Positions 5,346 to 23,035 of a stretch of DNA of 26,545 bases are shown here, in pieces (within the stretch, counting starts at the first letter, position 1; each line of letters starts with the position of its first letter). The notes below the pieces were generated by a model. The model was not told where the DNA came from, made no database searches, and worked only from the letters and a program-made list of their open reading frames with translations. The DNA lies in IMG/VR virus record IMGVR_UViG_3300037657_000297, positions 1-26,545 of that record. One strand, 5' to 3'. A program made the translations under genes and the position numbers. Source of the DNA: a virus (taxonomy: Duplodnaviria > Caudoviricetes).

Positions 5346-5448
5346 GACAGAGGAAAACAATTACTTGTCTTCGTTTTCCCGCGATAGTCCCTCATGGCGA
5401 GGGGGACGGACCATAACGCCTTGCATTCCGCGAGGCGTTATTTTTTTT
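5346..5448 (+). ncRNA. Candidate ~100 nt small RNA convergent with the portal-MuF gene
   Basis: Bounded by the promoter above and an intrinsic terminator; possible pseudoknot plus hairpin; no credible ORF. Confidence 0.55.
5413..5448 (+). terminator. Rho-independent terminator
   Basis: ATAACGCCTTGC-ATTCC-GCGAGGCGTTAT followed by a T run; overlaps the stop codon of the minus-strand gene. Confidence 0.7.
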
Positions 5449-8314
5449 GCCTCACCATTATTCCGGGTGTTTCTTTAGCCCGGAAACTGAACGTCCATCC
5501 TGAATAACCCGGATACTCGCGCGTACTGTTTATCACAACGTTCCAGTATCCTCCTTCTTCGACTTTTAGGATGTAACCCTTTCCGAGTTTGACCATTCCG
5601 CTTTTTTTCTTTATTCCGGGAGCTTCCTGCAGGCTGATAACCACCGCGTCAGGGTTTTTCAACGCTTGCTCGAACAGATTGAGATATTTCAACCTCGCGA
5701 GGTTCTTCAGATACTGCGCGGGCTTATCGACCGGAATCACGTGGTCGATCAGCCGGTCGGTATCAATATAAATCGTGTTCCCGAACTTGTCCGTAATCTT
5801 ACCGTCCGGGATTATTTCTTTCAGGTATGCCTTCGCCTTCGCGGAAACATCCTCCGGTTTCCCTTTAACATCAAAACCCGCTTTTTTTTCAAGGACGTCT
5901 TTCAGTTCTGTTTTCAAATCGACTTTTTCGTCGATCAGGTTTTTCCATCCCGAGGTATCCTTATTCTGCTTGATCTCCAGCCATTTCCCGAAATCCTTCC
6001 CGGCGTTATTTTCGAACCCTTCCGGAGTCTTCAGAAGCAGTTTTCCCGAAGTATCGAAATTATTCAGCTTCGGCGCGACGAGTGTCTCGAAATCCGGGTT
6101 GTACGAATTATTAGCGACAACCTCCTTCATATCCGGCGCGCCCTGCGGAAGTTTTTCTGGGTCGATTCCTTTGTTCTTCAGGTATTCCGGTGAAAGACTC
6201 CGCACTGTGCACCGGCACCCGAACGCGTCCTTTGGGGTATGTTCGTCCCAGAACGGGTCGTCGTAACGGCGGATCATCCCATGCATCGCCGCGTGCTCCG
6301 GGCGCGTCCCTTTATCCATCGTAGCAATTCTCTGCCAATAGGGGGCGATATCGACGTCTTTTCGGAGCTGCGCCATTTTCCCGGCCATCTGCGCAGAACG
6401 CATATTTTCCCAGTAAACCTGCTTGAGCCGCGCTTCCGGCAAAACGCCTTTTTCCATCCATCCCGACACCCATTCTTTATAAGGGATATTCCCTTCTTTC
6501 GCGTCTATCAGGGATTTCAATAAATCCGCAATCGTCTCTTCCTTCAGGTCGCCGGTTACCGTAAACGCGAAGTTCCGGTACTTTTCGCCGAGCGCGAGAA
6601 AATCCGCTTTCGGCATCGGAACCTTCATCTTCAGGAAATCGACCGCCGTCTGAGGGGGTATTTTACCCTTCATATCCGCGAGCGAGACGACCTCTTGGCT
6701 GGCGTAGTTTTGCGCATCATTCCATCGCGCCTGCCCTGAGCGAAGCCGAAGGGCCCAAATCCGCCCTAAAATATCGCCTGCAAGTAGCGCGTTCCCGAAC
6801 GACACGGATGTCGAAGAGTCGGCCGGTTCTGCATCGACCGCAATATCGAGCGAATCCGCTATCCGTTGCATCGCCTCGTCATATTCCGAAGCGCCTTCAA
6901 GTGCGGCGTGAATTGCGTTTACAAACGGCTCGAATAGTTTGCCCTTCTTCGTTTCACCTTCAATCGCGGCATCGAACGCTTTGTCTTCCGCTTCAACAGT
7001 CGCGATTTCAATATCCGTTAGTACTATCACCTTGACATCATCCCGAACTAGTCGAGGGATGTTTTTTTTTTCGACCCCCACGGATGGGGGAAGTCCCGCG
7101 GGGGCATGGACGCCGGAGAGCGGGACATCCTTCTCTGCGAACGGAAGTTCCGGCGTAGTTTCTTCCTTGATGGCGAAATCGTCGCCTTCCTTCATCCGGT
7201 ACTTATCCGCAAGGTATTTCGGAGTAGGCCGCCATCCGATATTATAGAGGAGAGCGTCGCGCTGGGCGCGGTCGGCGGCTACATCCTCTTCCTCGAAATA
7301 CTTTAACGATGGAAATTTTTCGACGTTATAATTCAGGTTCACGAGGCTTCTTGCGAGACGATTGAATGTATTTGCAACCATCTTTTTATCACCCTCGACT
7401 ATTTCCCCGCGAACTTGGAAGTGTACCGTGCCCAGAGCCTGCGAGCCGACATTACCCTGCTCGGTCGTGAGCGTCTGTCCGAGTATCGCTTTCGAGACCT
7501 CGGCATTACTCCACCCGACCATTTGGCTGAACGCGAGAGAGGAACCCGCTTTATTCACATCCACCGTCATCAGCTGATCGCCGGGTTGCCCCTGAAACAC
7601 ACCGGTCGCATCCTCGACCATCCGGTCGAGCATATCGAGCATTTTATCGATCTTTTCCTGATTCTGCTCCTGTGTCATAATGTACATCAATGCGCCGCCG
7701 TACTTCTCGAGGAAGTTCATCCAGAATTTGACGCCGCCTTTCTTGAACGAGACCGGCCAAAACACGCGCGCGAGTTTCCGTTCGCCGTAAGGGTTCCTGT
7801 AGGTAGCCCGGTGACGGACGAGTTCGATCCTATCCATCTCGACCAATTCACCGTCAATGCCTTTTCCCTTCGAAAGAAACCGTAATTGATTCTGGTTGTC
7901 GAACACAAACCATTCGGGCGGTCGTCCTTCTATAGCAGAGTAATAAATCCGGTTGCCGTCGGTGGTGGTAACCTTTTCCAGAACGCTCAACCCGTAATAG
8001 ACGGCTTCGAGTATTTCGCGGGTCAGGGTTTCGGTATCGATATTCGCGAATACGTCCTTCACGAAATCGAGCGCGCGTTTGTCTTCTCGGCGCGAACTGT
8101 CAACCTGCCAATCCCATTCGCACGAAAGCACGCCCGCCTCGCGGCTGGTCATACAGCTATCGACATGCGCGTCGAACGTCAATTGACGGTAGATCGAAAC
8201 ATCATACCCCTTCGCCTGAAGAACGCTATCCGGGTCGGGCAGACGGGTCAAATATCCCGCCATTTCCTGCCATGACCGCTCGCGTGTGTAAATAGAACCC
8301 ATATTTTTTGCCAT
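5438..8314 (-). CDS. Portal (Mu gp29/DUF935) - MuF head morphogenesis - putative PBECR-type nuclease fusion
   Basis: N-terminal ~400 aa: DAHVDSC..R, YYGLSVLE, FLEKYG, ISK-like VSKAILGQTLTT..GSQALGTVH. Middle: AFTVTG, PYWQ..ATMD..TRPEH, DDPFW..FGCRCTV. C-terminal: H...RLKYL..LKNPD...GY...GWTF. Start ATG 8314 (8302 alternative). Confidence 0.85.
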   Translation of the reverse strand: MAKNMGSIYTRERSWQEMAGYLTRLPDPDSVLQAKGYDVSIYRQLTFDAHVDSCMTSREAGVLSCEWDWQVDSSRREDKRALDFVKDVFANIDTETLTREILEAVYYGLSVLEKVTTTDGNRIYYSAIEGRPPEWFVFDNQNQLRFLSKGKGIDGELVEMDRIELVRHRATYRNPYGERKLARVFWPVSFKKGGVKFWMNFLEKYGGALMYIMTQEQNQEKIDKMLDMLDRMVEDATGVFQGQPGDQLMTVDVNKAGSSLAFSQMVGWSNAEVSKAILGQTLTTEQGNVGSQALGTVHFQVRGEIVEGDKKMVANTFNRLARSLVNLNYNVEKFPSLKYFEEEDVAADRAQRDALLYNIGWRPTPKYLADKYRMKEGDDFAIKEETTPELPFAEKDVPLSGVHAPAGLPPSVGVEKKNIPRLVRDDVKVIVLTDIEIATVEAEDKAFDAAIEGETKKGKLFEPFVNAIHAALEGASEYDEAMQRIADSLDIAVDAEPADSSTSVSFGNALLAGDILGRIWALRLRSGQARWNDAQNYASQEVVSLADMKGKIPPQTAVDFLKMKVPMPKADFLALGEKYRNFAFTVTGDLKEETIADLLKSLIDAKEGNIPYKEWVSGWMEKGVLPEARLKQVYWENMRSAQMAGKMAQLRKDVDIAPYWQRIATMDKGTRPEHAAMHGMIRRYDDPFWDEHTPKDAFGCRCTVRSLSPEYLKNKGIDPEKLPQGAPDMKEVVANNSYNPDFETLVAPKLNNFDTSGKLLLKTPEGFENNAGKDFGKWLEIKQNKDTSGWKNLIDEKVDLKTELKDVLEKKAGFDVKGKPEDVSAKAKAYLKEIIPDGKITDKFGNTIYIDTDRLIDHVIPVDKPAQYLKNLARLKYLNLFEQALKNPDAVVISLQEAPGIKKKSGMVKLGKGYILKVEEGGYWNVVINSTREYPGYSGWTFSFRAKETPGIMVRQKK

Positions 8315-8544
8315 TTTTACCCCGTTTTTGACTCCCACAAGGGGAGAAATTCCGCGATTCCACGGATGGAAAGGAGCGGAACACCATATTTTTTAAGTTT
8401 TTCCTTCAATATCTTATATTTCTATATCCGGTAAACACTTGAAGCACTCTTTAATAGCCTATAACACCGTTTATTATTACAACCCCTGTATAGAGTTATA
8501 TTATCATGTTTTCCTAATATCATTCAACGTCGTTCGATTCGGAA

Positions 8545-15937: not shown

Positions 15938-16227
15938 TACTTATCCCGGACAACGTCTACCGTATAGGCTACCCATTTTATACCGGAATTGAAGAAAACC
16001 TTTTGAGAATATTCTTCGCCTTCCGGTTCTTCAATTCTTTCGAACAAAGTTCCTTTTTCACGGAGAAGAAAGTTCCAGTTTCCATCGTAAACAACCTTCA
16101 GTAAAGTTCCGTCAGAAACCGCGAGAAAATATTCTTTTTCGTCGTCATCAGGGTAAACATTCAATTCTTCCTCAAAATCTCCTTCGATCTCGATGAGGTC
16201 ATCACTGGCACCGAATATCTCTATCAT
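15937..16227 (-). CDS. Hypothetical phage protein
   Basis: ATG 16227 with AAGGAGG SD; IFGASDDLIEIEGD, SDGTLL. Confidence 0.75.
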   Translation of the reverse strand: MIEIFGASDDLIEIEGDFEEELNVYPDDDEKEYFLAVSDGTLLKVVYDGNWNFLLREKGTLFERIEEPEGEEYSQKVFFNSGIKWVAYTVDVVRDK

Positions 16228-16955
16228 ACGTCCTCCTTTACGGGAACTTCTTCTCGTTTTATGGCTTTGTCGCACGTATCCGCATGGCAGATTTTTTCCG
16301 CCTTCGGGTAATCGAGGCCGATGAGGAGACACCGCCATTGTTTGCCGAACGACTGCAAGTTCCAGCCGAGAATATCCCTGTACCGCGAATTTTCGCATTC
16401 TCCGCAGCGGATATCGCCCGGTTGAGCGGCGCGGTAGTTGTTCACTTTCTTTATCTCAAGCGGGGTCAGCCTCCCTTTCGGCGTCCCTGCCTCGGTCGGC
16501 ATTAGTCCATCCATGGACGTCATTGTTTTCCTCCGGTCGTCGGCATCCGTAGGACACTGAGCGACAGCCGAAGTGTCGTTTTTGTGATACCTTTTCAACG
16601 CCTCGATAACCTTCCGCGCTTCGTGCGCCTGAAGGTCGCCCGGGTTTTTCACCGTCCGGGACACGATCTTACTGCAAAATCCCGGCAGATTCTTAACCGT
16701 CCCTTTCGCGAGGTTGCGAATCTTCATCAACTGCGCGTCGGTGGCCATTCCAGCGGCGTTTAAGAGTTTCAAAAATATTGTTCGAAGGTCTCTATAATCA
16801 GCATAAGACAAATCCTTCGAACTCGGTACGCCGCTTGTCCCGAGCGAAGCCGAGGGAAACCCGGATAATAATGCCCGGTAGGATTCTTCGTCCATCCCGA
16901 GCCGGGACTTCCAGATATGAATCTTGGCTATTTCAGCCTTACCGATTGTTTTCAT
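16224..16955 (-). CDS. gemA: GemA/DUF1018-like protein fused to a C-terminal Cys-rich domain
   Basis: ATG 16955 with GGAGGT SD; IAKIHI...LGMDEESYRALL, SSKDLS, KVIEALK; internal SD+ATG at 16523. Confidence 0.75.
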   Translation of the reverse strand: MKTIGKAEIAKIHIWKSRLGMDEESYRALLSGFPSASLGTSGVPSSKDLSYADYRDLRTIFLKLLNAAGMATDAQLMKIRNLAKGTVKNLPGFCSKIVSRTVKNPGDLQAHEARKVIEALKRYHKNDTSAVAQCPTDADDRRKTMTSMDGLMPTEAGTPKGRLTPLEIKKVNNYRAAQPGDIRCGECENSRYRDILGWNLQSFGKQWRCLLIGLDYPKAEKICHADTCDKAIKREEVPVKEDV

Positions 16956-17021
16956 ACGTACCTCCGACCCCCACGGATGGGGGGAGTGCCGAGTTTCGAC
17001 AAGGATGTCGAAACCGGCGCT

Positions 17022-17107
17022 TGCCTGCGGCGGGATTCGAACCCGCGACGCGTCGCCGTTATCCCTATTAAGGGAGGCGACTGTTCTATCCGCTGAACTA
17101 CACAAGC
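17022..17107 (-). tRNA. tRNA-like gene with a 20 nt anticodon-loop region; anticodon unassignable
   Basis: GCTTGTG TA GTTC-AGCGGATA-GAAC A GTCGC-[CTCCCTTAATAGGGATAACG]-GCGAC GCGTC GCGGG-TTCGAAT-CCCGC CGCAGGC A; no encoded CCA. Confidence 0.8.
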
Positions 17108-17113
17108 TCCTAA

Positions 17114-17299
17114 CTATCTTAACAAACTCGCGTCCCCGGTCTCGACGGCTCGGATGAATTTCGAGAGCTTCAATTCGTACATCTCCATACGCCGCGCCCT
17201 GTCCCTCATCGTTTCGGCGGAATAACCGGCTCGTCCCGCCGGACTCCGGTGGTTCTTCTTCCACGCGGCGGTATTCCTGATCGCCCGCTTTTTACTCAT
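17114..17299 (-). CDS. Small basic hypothetical protein
   Basis: ATG 17299 with GGGGGAG SD overlapping the gam stop. Confidence 0.5.
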   Translation of the reverse strand: MSKKRAIRNTAAWKKNHRSPAGRAGYSAETMRDRARRMEMYELKLSKFIRAVETGDASLLR

Positions 17300-17888
17300 G
17301 CGCTCCCCCACGGTCACCGAGCCTGTCTTCCGCGTATGCGGGAGGCGAAGCCGAGGTGTCCGCTTCTTGCTCGATATCGTTATCGAGTTCTTTTTCCATC
17401 GCCGCGATAATCTTGTCTATCTCGCCGTCGGTCGCGCTGATCACCAGCTCGTCCACGTCCGCTTTGATCTCGACACCGATAGCCTTCAGGTCGGCGGCGG
17501 TCAGAGATTTCAACGCGTCCTTGATGACCGATTCCTTCGTCTGAATCATCAGCTTCGCTTGTTCCTTAGAAAACTTCTTCCTGATCAGCGCGATAGTCTG
17601 TTCTTGAGACAGGATGATCGTCTCGCCGGTCTTTTTCCGGTACCCGATTTTGATACCGTGCATGACCTGCGTCTTGGGTTTGTCGAAGAGTTCCTTGTTC
17701 GCCGCGATAACGCCCGCGAGTTCGGATTTCTTATCCGCCATTTTGGCGAAAAGACGCTTGATTTTCGGGACAAATCCGCGCTTCACCGCTTCGATTTCGC
17801 CGTTCATCGCCGCCAGTTCGAACGCGAGAGCCTCCCGCGCGTCGGCGTAATCCTTGACCGGCTTGTCGAATACTTCGATATGATTCAT
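17292..17888 (-). CDS. gam: Mu Gam-like host-nuclease inhibitor
   Basis: Helical N-terminus, NKELF.KPKT..HGIKIGYRK, I.TKESVIKDALK, L.AIGV.I; Mu early-region position. Confidence 0.8.
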   Translation of the reverse strand: MNHIEVFDKPVKDYADAREALAFELAAMNGEIEAVKRGFVPKIKRLFAKMADKKSELAGVIAANKELFDKPKTQVMHGIKIGYRKKTGETIILSQEQTIALIRKKFSKEQAKLMIQTKESVIKDALKSLTAADLKAIGVEIKADVDELVISATDGEIDKIIAAMEKELDNDIEQEADTSASPPAYAEDRLGDRGGAHE

Positions 17889-17981
17889 TCGTTCCTCCTG
17901 ACCCCCACGGATGGGGGGAATGCCGAGATTCGACAGCTTGCCTTCACGTGAAGCGTGGAGGGGATTTCGAAGCCGGCCGAT

Positions 17982-18058
17982 TTGCCTATCTCATCAGCGA
18001 GCGGAGGCTATCCCGCCCGGACGCCCGGACATCGAGTAGCCGTTAGGCGTACCGGGAT
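17982..18058 (-). ncRNA. Type II hammerhead-ribozyme-like element with variant core
   Basis: Stem III ACGCC/GGCGU, GUC triplet, stem I CGGGCGG/CCGCUCG, CUGAUGAG, loop I GCCU can pair with 3' AGGC; GAAA replaced by GGUA. Confidence 0.5.
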
Positions 18059-18275: not shown

Positions 18276-19214
18276 TCAGATTATCATGTGCTCGGCAGCT
18301 TTCTTAATCACCGCCGGATCGATTTCGCAATCGTTCCTGATCGCTGTTCTCTGCGCCAGCAGCATCAGCTTCGTCAGGTATCTCGCGTTGTGTTTGGACG
18401 CCGAGTGGAACGTCTCGATCACGGCGGGTTTCGCGTTCGGAATGACGGTTTCGACAATCGCCTGAGTATCGCCGATATGCAGCTCGTCTAATTCGATATA
18501 TTCCATGCGGCTCGTGAAATACTTGTGCTCGGTGCGCATCTTCATGATTTTTCCCTTCATATCGAGGGAACCGACGAGTACGACCGGAACCTTCGCGTGG
18601 TCGAAAATGCTTCGCAGAATATCGAGGCCCTTAACTTTGAGGTAGTCGGCTTCGTCCACGATGATCATACGATCCGTGCCGTGGAGAATTTCGATGATAC
18701 CCTTGAAAAGCATATCTTTCCTGGTATGCCCGTCCATCCCGATGGTTTTCGCGATATCGTAGAGGATGGTCGTTTCGCCGTACGTGACATTCAGCTCGAT
18801 CAGGATTGTCGCGGCGAATCTCCGTTTGAACTCCGTGAGAGTGATCGTTTTACCAGCTCCGTTGTCCCCGCCGATCACCAGCAGCCTACCGTCCACCTGC
18901 GCGAGCGCGAGGTTGTGATCGATTGTTTTCGAGACGCTTGTCTCGACATAGGTCGGTTTTTTCAGCATCGAACGGAATCGTTCCATTTCCTGTTCGATCA
19001 CCGCGAGAACCTTTTTCAGGTTCTCCTCGACATTTCCGGTATAATTACCCTTGAGGAGAGCGGATACTACCGCCGTACTGATACCGGTCTTCCGGCAGAG
19101 TTCCGCCTGACTCATCCCGGTATCGGCAAGGAATTTCTTGATGTCCCGTACCGCCGATTCGTTACGGTCTTCCGGCTGGTCAGGCTCATTCATCAGATCA
19201 TCGATTTCACTCAT
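18276..19214 (-). CDS. MuB-like transposition AAA+ ATPase with N-terminal HTH
   Basis: MSQAELCRKTGIS...LKGNYTG; Walker A GDNGAGKT; Walker B MIIVDEAD; PVVLVG; FTSR. Confidence 0.92.
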   Translation of the reverse strand: MSEIDDLMNEPDQPEDRNESAVRDIKKFLADTGMSQAELCRKTGISTAVVSALLKGNYTGNVEENLKKVLAVIEQEMERFRSMLKKPTYVETSVSKTIDHNLALAQVDGRLLVIGGDNGAGKTITLTEFKRRFAATILIELNVTYGETTILYDIAKTIGMDGHTRKDMLFKGIIEILHGTDRMIIVDEADYLKVKGLDILRSIFDHAKVPVVLVGSLDMKGKIMKMRTEHKYFTSRMEYIELDELHIGDTQAIVETVIPNAKPAVIETFHSASKHNARYLTKLMLLAQRTAIRNDCEIDPAVIKKAAEHMII

Positions 19215-19233
19215 CTGTATCCTCCTGTCAATT

Positions 19234-19324
19234 AGTTGAAAGTGAAAAGTGGAAAGTGCAAAACAAAAAATAAAAGACTTAATTCCTTTTTCTCTTTACA
19301 CTTGTCACTTTACACTTGTCACTT
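19234..19324. repeat. Opposed heptamer tandem repeats
   Basis: AAAGTGA/AAAGTGG/AAAGTGC facing TTACACT TGTCACT TTACACT TGTCACT. Confidence 0.7.
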
Positions 19325-21532
19325 CTAATCGATATCCAGCGGTCCTTTCAGTTTTTTCTGTACGTCCTGTTTCGCTTCCAATTCCTCGCGTACCGGTTCG
19401 GCGATGATGATGTTCCGTTTCGCCGAGCGTTTCCCTTCCAGTCCCATTACCTGCGATTTCAACTTCCTGATCTGCCGTTCCTCGCGTTGATTCGCTTTGT
19501 ACGCTTCTATCGTTTTTACATCCGGCTCGTCCGCGAACCGCGACCGCTCTTTCCGGTCGGCGCTAAATAGGAATTGCCCGTCCCGGTCGAATACGAGGAT
19601 TTTCGTGATGTCGTCAGCGTCTACCGCTATCTCGACCTTCTGTTTCTGGATCAGCGCGGTTTTCATCTCCGCGTCGCGGTAGTAATATCCGAGATATTGG
19701 ATACCATTGCGCCGGACCGTCTTGACATACCGCGGCATAAGCGCGATCCTGAGTTTCTCAGGTTCGATCACGCGAAAGTCTTCGGCCTCCTCCGCCCATC
19801 GTTCGTTCGGCGTCCGACCGTCCATCCCGTGGCCGGTATGCACCTTATCGTTATACCATGTCATAAATTCCTTTTTAAACCTATCCCGGACTTCGTCCAT
19901 CGTCGGCACGAGTTCGGGATGCGCTTTCGCTTTTTTCATCAGCTCCGTCAGAATTTCCGGCTTGTCGTCGATATTCCGTCCGCAATAGGTATCGAACATC
20001 TTAGAGAAGTACTCGTCGACCGTGCGCCAGAAACGCTCGATCTGTTTAGCTTTAGCGTTATAGGGGATAGCAAAATGCGGTTTGATACCGAGGCGCGAAT
20101 AATATCCCTCAAGCTCGTTCTCGAAATCTCCTCGCGACTGCTTGTTTTTGTACGCCTTTCCGTTGTCGATATGCACGTTCAGCGGCAGTATATACTCGTT
20201 GTCGGCTATCGAACGGTAAAGCGCTTTCGCGACCAGTTCCGAACTCTCGGTCTCGGCGACCTCGAATCCCATCAGTTTTCGGCAGGCCTTGTCCATAAAC
20301 GCGTCGAGCGTCGGCCGGACGAAATTCCCGTCGGCGTTCCGGCAGAACAGATTGAGGGTATGCCCGTCGGATGTGAACCAATCCCCGGCCAGCATCGCTT
20401 CGCTCGAATAATCTATTTCCATGTGCGGCATAACCTTATCATCGAACGGTTTTTCGCCTTCGCGGAACGCGACCTTCAGCATGTACGGAATCCGGGCGAT
20501 GAAACGGCAGATTGTCGGGTAGCTCGCTCCGCTCGCCTGCGCCTGAAGTCCGTTCGACATTAGGTATTCGATCATCAATTTATATACATGTTTGTTGTTC
20601 AGCCGGTTCTGGCCGGTCGATATGAGGCCGGCCTTTTTTCCTTCGTTATCCGCCGAACCGGTCAGATAGATATTTTTCACGGCTTTCTGCTCGATTTCCG
20701 TCAATTTCGTCTGTCCACGGCGTTTCCCGTAGAGAGGTATCAGCGCGGCCGTCTCGTCTTCGTGCCGCCGCCGGGCGTCGTACACCGTTTTCATCCAACG
20801 CTGAACCGAACGAAAATCACGTTTTCCGAGACGGGAAAGGAGTTCCTTGTCCACCTGCCCTTTATTGTACCGGGCTACATATTGCTCGATCAGTTTAGTC
20901 CGGTTTTTCCAGACGTCGCTCCATGCGGAGAGTGATTGCAGGTATTTTTCGATATAATCGATCAGTTTCATTCTATCGAGGGCTTTTTCACGGATTTTTT
21001 CAGGAAAAGAAACCCACCGGCGCGCGTCCGGGCTGGCCGGTAGAAAGGATTCGAGGATATTGCGCTTGTTGAACTCGGCGTCTTCCAATTCCGCTTCCCA
21101 CCGCAGAATCCGTCTGATCGACCTCTTTCCGAGGCGTCCGAGTATTTCCCCGTCAATCCCGCCGGAATTATAGGCGTTTTCGAATGACTCGAGAACGTCC
21201 GCCGAGTCCGCATGCTCCCGGCAATACCGTCGTTTTTTCTCGACGAGAGTCAGGATGTCTTCCGCGTGCCGGATCGACTCAGGCGGAAAGTATTTTCCGC
21301 TGATAATCCCTTCCTGCGTGGAAATACTCCGTGCGGTTTTTATCTTCGCCGCGATGTCCACCGGCATGGTTTCGAGCGGGTATACGCGGAAGTTTCCGCC
21401 GCGGCCCCGGCCTTTTACCGCGGCGGACGGAATTCCGAGCGCACCGGCGCGTTTGACCGCCCCGGGACGCGTGATTCCCCAGACCGCCGCGAGTTCAGCC
21501 GTGGATGCGAAGTTTTTCGTTTCTATCTTCAT
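19325..21532 (-). CDS. MuA-like DDE transposase
   Basis: Start moved to ATG 21532; N-terminal Mu-type HTH (GRGG...YPLE); SDGH, HIDNGKAY, AKAKQIERFW; YN..H...GRTP..W; RRNGI; adjacent to MuB. Confidence 0.93.
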   Translation of the reverse strand: MKIETKNFASTAELAAVWGITRPGAVKRAGALGIPSAAVKGRGRGGNFRVYPLETMPVDIAAKIKTARSISTQEGIISGKYFPPESIRHAEDILTLVEKKRRYCREHADSADVLESFENAYNSGGIDGEILGRLGKRSIRRILRWEAELEDAEFNKRNILESFLPASPDARRWVSFPEKIREKALDRMKLIDYIEKYLQSLSAWSDVWKNRTKLIEQYVARYNKGQVDKELLSRLGKRDFRSVQRWMKTVYDARRRHEDETAALIPLYGKRRGQTKLTEIEQKAVKNIYLTGSADNEGKKAGLISTGQNRLNNKHVYKLMIEYLMSNGLQAQASGASYPTICRFIARIPYMLKVAFREGEKPFDDKVMPHMEIDYSSEAMLAGDWFTSDGHTLNLFCRNADGNFVRPTLDAFMDKACRKLMGFEVAETESSELVAKALYRSIADNEYILPLNVHIDNGKAYKNKQSRGDFENELEGYYSRLGIKPHFAIPYNAKAKQIERFWRTVDEYFSKMFDTYCGRNIDDKPEILTELMKKAKAHPELVPTMDEVRDRFKKEFMTWYNDKVHTGHGMDGRTPNERWAEEAEDFRVIEPEKLRIALMPRYVKTVRRNGIQYLGYYYRDAEMKTALIQKQKVEIAVDADDITKILVFDRDGQFLFSADRKERSRFADEPDVKTIEAYKANQREERQIRKLKSQVMGLEGKRSAKRNIIIAEPVREELEAKQDVQKKLKGPLDID

Positions 21533-21631
21533 ATACCGTCCTAATATAAGCCGGGGACGGGGGACCAATCCCGCCCCCAACTACAGAAGATGATGATCGA
21601 TGACTCACGTGAGAATCATCGATCTGGTCAT

Positions 21632-21701
21632 TTACGGGGGCGGGATTCGAACCCGCACATACCGGATAAGTCCGGCAAGTCTACCGTTGCTTCACCCCGT
21701 G
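21632..21701 (-). tRNA. Initiator-tRNA-like gene with a 4 nt anticodon loop
   Basis: CACGGGG TG AAGC-AACGGTA-GACTT G CCGGA-CTTA-TCCGG TATGT GCGGG-TTCGAAT-CCCGC CCCCGTA A; C1:A72 mismatch; no CCA. Confidence 0.75.
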
Positions 21702-22728: not shown

Positions 22729-22771
22729 ATATTCCTCCTATTCAACAAATTTTTATAAACACCAAAATCGG

Positions 22772-22980
22772 AATGAATACACCCCGCGTCCGTTTGCAAA
22801 CAAACGCGGGGCTGGTGTTTATCCTATTGTTGAGTAGGAGCAAAATAATGCGGGACGGATAACACCATGATATTAATTTTGAAAAATGAGTACACCCCTC
22901 CCGCTAAGGAGGGGTTGGCGTTTCTGAACATCTCTGTTTGGAGGACAGATATGTTGAAGACGGGTTAGGTTCAGAACGCC
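22772..22980 (-). ncRNA. Two tandem ~95 nt structured RNA units in the leader
   Basis: Units 22885-22980 and 22772-22866 share GGYGTT...AACRCC AR CCCC...GGGG TGTAYTCATT. Confidence 0.7.
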
Positions 22981-22990
22981 GTGTTATTAA

Positions 22991-23035
22991 TTTACATTGT
23001 AAAGACATTGTAAATCTATAATCGGGTAATGTCAA
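22991..23035 (-). promoter_or_regulatory. Consensus sigma70 promoter with overlapping operator-like repeats
   Basis: TTGACA(23035-23030)-N17-TACAAT(23012-23007); ACATTGTAAA at 22994 and 23005; palindrome TTTACA-T-TGTAAA at 22991-23003. Confidence 0.8.

Follow-up and report, generated by a model that had tools for sequence, protein, structure and literature searches.

In plant mitochondria, tRNA-like structures known as t-elements lie next to coding regions and have been put forward as cis signals at which RNase P and RNase Z would cut to generate the ends of mRNAs (Forner et al. 2007, PMC1920247). It has been suggested that hammerhead ribozymes flanking prophage genes divide long transcripts into pieces of gene length (PMC3088659), and ribozymes are enriched near genes of Mu-like phages for a reason stated as unknown (PMC10085705). 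Here we analysed IMG/VR record IMGVR_UViG_3300037657_000297, a 26.5-kb virus record of a Mu-like phage, over its full length of 26,545 nucleotides (nt; the window). It carries a tRNA-shaped gene between gam and gemA, hereafter mimic 1, in which the anticodon loop is replaced by an extra hairpin. Mimic 1 is a real and non-decoding element, kept in the one relative found, and most likely marks a site for cutting by host enzymes. Like t-elements, it is a tRNA-like structure at the edge of a coding region and a proposed cutting signal. It differs from them in belonging to a bacterial virus, in keeping the full elbow together with an enlarged and structured anticodon arm, and in being known from DNA alone. 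With the prophage hammerheads it shares the phage type and the gam-gemA interval, but it is not a ribozyme and would depend on host enzymes.

Other described elements resemble mimic 1 in part. The intron-bearing tRNAs of Lak megaphages are also phage tRNA genes longer than expected, but their introns are typically identical between genomes (PMC6784885), whereas the excess length of the mimic varies and no excision register restores a normal loop. The tRNA-Other of Bacillus cereus is likewise a non-translating tRNA-like element within a longer RNA and is linked to a mobile island; unlike mimic 1, which stands at a gene junction of a phage operon, it borders an island in a chromosome and has a link to regulation (PMC3399842). 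Canonical class I tRNAs (RF00005, Arg-type) share the acceptor, D and T arms, the elbow motifs and A20, whereas mimic 1 has a 20-nt loop in place of 7 nt and displays no anticodon with a purine at position 37. The element and its arm lie as follows.

17022..17107, minus strand: tRNA mimic 1, called by ARAGORN and Rfam, with an Arg-type body (G1-C72, A20, A73) and a canonical acceptor-T stack of 7+5 base pairs (bp), without an encoded CCA.
17052..17081, minus strand: extended anticodon arm of mimic 1, comprising a 6-bp lower stem, a 4-nt 3' bulge (17058-17061) and a 5-bp apical hairpin (17062-17075).

A preliminary description of the window had placed a tRNA shape at these coordinates, and both programs agree: on the minus strand, Rfam RF00005 scored 50.8 bits (E 2.5e-8, over the cut-off) and ARAGORN typed the gene as Leu-TAA. 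Its statement that the stems pair also held for the acceptor (7/7, two of them U.G), D (4/4) and T (5/5) stems. The 20-nt anticodon loop folds as had been described: five base pairs form a hairpin with UAAU at its apex, and a 4-nt bulge lies on the 3' side. The first and last bases of the loop pair as well, extending the lower stem to 6 bp. The folding energy of the arm was -17.7 kcal/mol (z -5.1), a value equalled by none of 200 shuffles; when only the loop was shuffled, 8 of 2000 sequences reached the observed energy. The trimmed 86-mer was predicted by RNAfold to adopt the cloverleaf (P about 1.0), with the acceptor, D and T arms of a decoding class I tRNA. It does not have the 5-bp stem, 7-nt loop, U33 and purine 37 required of such a tRNA. 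It does have, at a gene boundary, the 12-bp acceptor-T stack and elbow that form the tRNA top half of a t-element. The element at 17022-17107 is thereby confirmed as a tRNA-shaped gene whose 20-nt loop folds into an extra hairpin.

The body of mimic 1 is nearest to the Arg tRNAs of the presumptive host. None of the 43 host tRNAs called by ARAGORN has an encoded CCA end, so the missing CCA in mimic 1 says little. Run X1, possibly the source sample and hence not independent, contains two alleles of the element. Both carry the long loop and no indel, and an assembly error behind the long loop is therefore unlikely. Runs X2 and X3 gave no coverage of the loop. Of the three differences between the X1 alleles, one converts an acceptor U.G pair to C-G, another puts an A.C mismatch into the lower stem and the third alters a base of the bulge. 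Within run X1, substitutions affected 3 of 77 nt in the element compared with 10 of 73 nt upstream (Fisher p 0.04), and 8 of the 10 upstream substitutions fell at third codon positions.

A search with Gam found one close phage (80% identity), the sequence of which is identical to a contig of a Brevinematales metagenome-assembled genome (MAG). Judging from this contig, the host probably belongs to the Brevinematales. Three records of this relative (L001, L002 and L288) are the same phage, being 99.99% identical. In the same slot, 6 nt behind the orthologous stop codon, the relative has a 79-nt tRNA-shaped gene (43.7 bits in Rfam) ending in A73-AGC, and this gene shares the 5-bp apical hairpin, 3' bulge and UUAAU apex of mimic 1. 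Between the two phages, both sides have changed with the pair retained at three acceptor positions, one T-stem position and two positions of the apical hairpin. Both mimics have U11-A24, which was found in just 8 of 116 canonical controls and so favours their common descent. The preliminary description had anticipated a conserved body and a variable loop, of which half was right: fold and position are retained, but the letters of the body vary and those of the apex are kept. Its view of the element as a non-decoding tRNA mimic, against which homologues with normal loops would have spoken, is supported, since the relative also lacks a normal loop.

The canonical register was strongly predicted in the relative's precursor (P 0.84-0.97). 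Its trailer fits a relaxed topology like that of hepatitis delta virus (HDV) and theta ribozymes, starting 4 nt after A73 (L002 8836-8887), with short helices and no counterpart in Rfam. None of 400 shuffles matched this motif, which was tailored after sight of the sequence and fails the stricter published helix lengths. The relative thus recalls the theta ribozyme-tRNA pairs of gut phages in that the HDV-like topology starts no more than 5 nt from the mimic's 3' end; it differs from them in these helix lengths, and both differ in that the mimic is non-decoding (PMC10879173). The window's trailer gave no match to the relaxed motif. By the features tested, mimic 1 lies outside decoding tRNAs, intron tRNAs and theta pairs. 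Phage tRNA mimics with hairpin-enlarged anticodon arms were not described in the literature searched, which covered few subscription papers and not the 'undetermined' tRNAs of the theta supplements, among which such forms may occur.

On balance, we consider mimic 1 somewhat more probably than otherwise a non-decoding processing mark for host RNase P, resembling a t-element. In recognising its substrates, RNase P relies on the elbow and on an acceptor-T distance of 12 bp, and it cuts model substrates consisting of the acceptor stem and T arm alone (PMC11143913); RNase P RNA is present in the host MAG of the relative. Mimic 1 keeps the elbow, the 12-bp stack, G1-C72 and a position behind a stop codon whilst features for decoding are lost, which points to a processing mark. 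The phages that carry ribozymes point the same way. Type II hammerheads over the cut-off were found in 3 of 44 Mu-like records scanned (of 80 Gam-related records), two of them in the gam-gemA interval, including one 11 nt behind a stop codon, and one just before gam. Given the published proposal that hammerheads cut transcripts, their presence in the interval of mimic 1 argues for a similar role. The slot, the 6-nt leader, the A73-AGC end and the UUAAU apex are common to window and relative, and each phage has, before MuA, another mimic whose loop is non-canonical. Among the options of the preliminary description, an RNase P/Z processing signal fits best, with the reservation that the predicted precursor fold of mimic 1 prefers a shifted register.

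The reading as a processing mark draws on the following neighbours.

17108..17113, minus strand: leader of 6 nt separating G1 from the stop codon upstream, of the same length in the relative.
17114..17299, minus strand: open reading frame (ORF) for a basic protein of 61 amino acids (aa) after gam, of no known family, with 149/186 nt identical in the relative.
17292..17888, minus strand: Mu Gam-like gene (PF07352, E 1.3e-9).
16959..17018, minus strand: hairpin repeat of family A, separated from A73 by the 3-nt gap given in the preliminary description and extending into the gemA ribosome-binding site.
16224..16955, minus strand: GemA-like gene (PF06252; alignment).
18276..21580, minus strand: MuB (18276-19214) and MuA (19325-21580), from which the element is assigned to an early operon of Mu-like type.

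No promoter-like site was found at mimic 1, the two best in the window (11/12) lying far upstream, from which we infer that it is co-transcribed in the early message. Every step after transcription is likewise one that we infer. Host RNase P would cut at G1 and a 3' cut would follow, splitting the operon into a piece with gam and the small ORF and a gemA piece shielded by the hairpin repeat at its 5' end. Once released, the RNA would be barred from decoding by the enlarged arm, whose kept UUAAU apex may serve to bind a factor.

Mimic 1 is not the only such element of these phages, and a degraded ribozyme lies nearby.

21632..21701, minus strand: tRNA mimic 2, with a 6-nt anticodon loop, 42.9 bits in Rfam, resembling host tRNA-Leu; it immediately precedes MuA and has a stop codon 8 nt upstream.
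L002 3954-4026: the relative's second mimic, before MuA, without U33.
17980..18053, minus strand: hammerhead-like remnant upstream of gam, 20.1 bits (cut-off 37), with the GAAA core strand missing.

ARAGORN made no call at mimic 2. All four tRNA-shaped genes seen in the window phage and the relative lack a canonical loop, and all four have A73. The mimics before MuA start with a C1.A72 mismatch in both phages and have no canonical anticodon loop; such a mismatch is a feature of initiator tRNAs. At the place of the window's hammerhead remnant, just before gam, the type II hammerhead of the relative is intact (55.4 bits; L001 5921-5991).

To place mimic 1 in a wider class, viral contigs were searched with a pattern of a class I D arm, 30-50 nt and a T loop; D- and T-loop conservation is built into this pattern and is no evidence. 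It matched at least 120 loci, an estimated total of about 210, against approximately 9200 with canonical spacing (a rough estimate from 1/64 parts), so that long forms make up about 2%. Across 401 genomes of the host phylum, a single phylum, the near-identical long pattern was absent and the canonical pattern occurred at 1284 places in 377 genomes; about 29 long forms would be expected at the viral rate. Among 96 distinct long forms, at least 6 of 7 acceptor positions paired in 82 (permutation mean 7.7). Setting aside 11 with a normal arm and a long variable arm and 14 with poor acceptor pairing left 71 non-canonical forms. In 53 of these the anticodon stem closed round a 12-32 nt loop (shuffle mean 11.6), with a hairpin inside in 35 of the 53. 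Compared with 116 canonical controls, the 53 long forms less often had U33 (18 versus 114), a purine discriminator (30 versus 108) and CCA (12 versus 64). Features for decoding and charging are thus relaxed in the class, and the acceptor helix is kept. Class members lie in early, head, lysis and tRNA-cluster regions. One recurrent long-loop subfamily (L189, L195, L210, L213, L217, L219 and identical copies; 22 loci) has a kept 12-nt loop and covarying acceptor stems, and another long-loop mimic (L203 1195-1293) lies directly before an RNA ligase gene, a possible splicing or repair pair.

Several results weigh against a processing mark. For mimic 1 with its trailer, RNAfold predicted a 4-nt shift of the acceptor register to be the more stable fold, with a margin of 0.6-4.7 kcal/mol. 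The canonical acceptor had P 0.00-0.22 in naked-RNA folding of the precursor, a model that excludes tertiary contacts, whereas 102 of 121 canonical controls with flanks retained theirs; an upstream hairpin competes with the acceptor in the same folding. Just one independent relative was found, and it has a weak lower anticodon stem and a U.U first D pair. In its host MAG, RNase Z gave no match over the cut-off, only matches below it. The kept apex is unnecessary for a mere cut. In the wider class just 12 of 39 members have a stop codon no more than 30 nt upstream; the class is therefore mixed and probably has more than one role. Among 40 class loci, none had a ribozyme at the Rfam cut-off within about 1.2 kb and 14 had other tRNA matches.

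The released RNA, with CCA added, could instead be the product, a trans-acting decoy for host factors with affinity for the acceptor end or elbow of tRNAs, such as tail-cutting or end-modifying defence enzymes, leaving translation undisturbed. This is the form in which the decoy idea of the preliminary description survives, and we regard it as doubtful. It shares its first steps with a processing mark, and the enrichment of the long form in viral contigs, the two A73-bearing mimics in each phage and the apex kept between phages are all consistent with it. In the relative, a putative second cutter at the 3' end would free the RNA, and a nucleotidyltransferase of the CCA-adding/poly(A) family in the host MAG could serve it. 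The element has no promoter-like site of its own, however, and acceptor sequences have diverged strongly, both from one phage to the other and among class members, in which the discriminator is relaxed. Published rescue by phage tRNAs also required an intact anticodon and stems (PMC11555353), which leaves the originally suggested decoy for anticodon nucleases weak; mimic 1 has no functional anticodon to replace a cleaved host tRNA in the manner of T5 tRNA-Tyr type anti-defence. Decay of a captured tRNA-Arg-like gene that had received an insertion and has no function is less probable still. An Arg-type body nearest to host Arg tRNAs, the two U.G acceptor pairs with a competing register, the A.C mismatch of one X1 allele and the decayed hammerhead nearby in the window lineage would all suit decay. 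Against it stand the compensatory changes, two of them in the apical hairpin, the kept leader length and slot, the absence of a canonical loop from all four tRNA-shaped genes of the two phages, and a substitution density below that of the flanking gene.

Two further explanations would give mimic 1 a role in decoding or pairing, and both are very improbable. ARAGORN reads UAA at the apex in both phages, and UUA is a rare Leu codon in the window phage (18 of 363 Leu codons in 14 genes), both in favour of decoding or recoding through the apical triplet; RNase P-matured phage antisense RNAs also exist (PMC5499578). The arm would be about 6 bp too long for ribosomal geometry, as judged from tRNA structure, and position 37 would be U, whilst no antisense match within the window exceeds 10 nt, a length reached by 92 of 300 shuffles. 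Decoding or an antisense role has no support beyond the apical UAA. The least credible explanation is a 13-nt intron spliced to give a decoding tRNA, although tRNA introns of unknown mechanism have been reported from Lak phages (PMC6784885) and a Y32-U33-R37 register fits 11 of 53 class members. It fails because none of the 8 excision registers gives a purine at 37; the preliminary description had rightly seen the misfit to a canonical intron register, and the tiny intron that it nevertheless offered is unsupported. Excess length differs in the relative (86 versus 79 nt), and a splicing enzyme was annotated among none of 40 window proteins. The PF01974 tRNA splicing endonuclease was not found in the host MAG (G081, possibly incomplete), with 4/4 archaeal controls positive.

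Further homologues of mimic 1 were sought in several ways. In viral contigs the exact-body pattern gave no match, and neither did blastn against GenBank phages. A pattern of apex and T loop matched four loci: one is the known relative, two are chance matches in coding-like sequence, and the fourth has an unclear fold and no ARAGORN call. Searching viral contigs with MuB found nothing, and GemA returned the known relative and three weak partial matches only. In the host class, Gam was found in 1 of 43 genomes. A script run over 80 metagenome Gam loci detected no mimic and a single canonical tRNA. A tRNA match was present in six of 80 viral Gam records (the relative, four canonical tRNAs and one odd-armed gene below the cut-off) in a scan that was not fully sensitive, as it missed the relative's second mimic. 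Relaxed ARAGORN calls with introns were rejected as noise. An extended hairpin arm also occurs in a tRNA-shaped gene of another Mu-like record, where the gene lies antisense to late genes (L167 195-278, minus strand; 27.7 bits).

On its minus strand the window encodes MuA, MuB, Gam, GemA, Mor, terminase, portal and head proteins; the repressor gene is divergent. The 61-aa ORF was assigned to no family, all Atlas matches being below 0.8; its final codons (17101-17134, minus strand) could pair with the 5' acceptor strand in naked RNA, an arrangement not kept in the relative. Window GemA (16224-16955, minus strand) carries a small Cys-rich domain as a fusion, whereas in the corresponding region of the relative (L002 9359-10037) this domain has an ORF of its own. 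Seven intergenic copies of the family A repeat lie within 2166-23343, several extending into a ribosome-binding site. The copy beside mimic 1 is not kept at the corresponding spot of the relative, whose MAG has four matches to the repeat, two of them on the prophage contig. At 22769-23035 (minus strand), a strong promoter-like site (11/12) is followed after about 200 nt by a 14-bp terminator-like hairpin, a possible attenuator. A single 966-aa ORF at 5438-8338 (minus strand) fuses portal, MuF and PBECR2 nuclease domains; a link between tRNA mimics and this gene was rejected, as no tRNA-like element lies behind it. We also rejected the hairpin as a DNA operator, as elsewhere only two-mismatch copies occur (17 versus 10.3 expected) and without pattern.

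It follows from the finding that annotation tools mis-type some phage 'tRNAs', as with mimic 1 and its ARAGORN call of Leu-TAA, and this affects counts of phage tRNA repertoires. More broadly, and only tentatively, phages may widely carry anticodon-disabled tRNA mimics, about 2% of the viral tRNA-shaped stretches matched, that are matured by host enzymes. Such mimics could be interchangeable stand-ins for ribozymes at operon junctions, or decoys against immunity that targets tRNA ends, with the extra hairpin as a protein docking site. If the released RNA does act as a decoy, it would be a new RNA-based counter-defence. The presence of a tRNA mimic in the interval where Mu-like phages carry ribozymes suggests that the cut itself matters.
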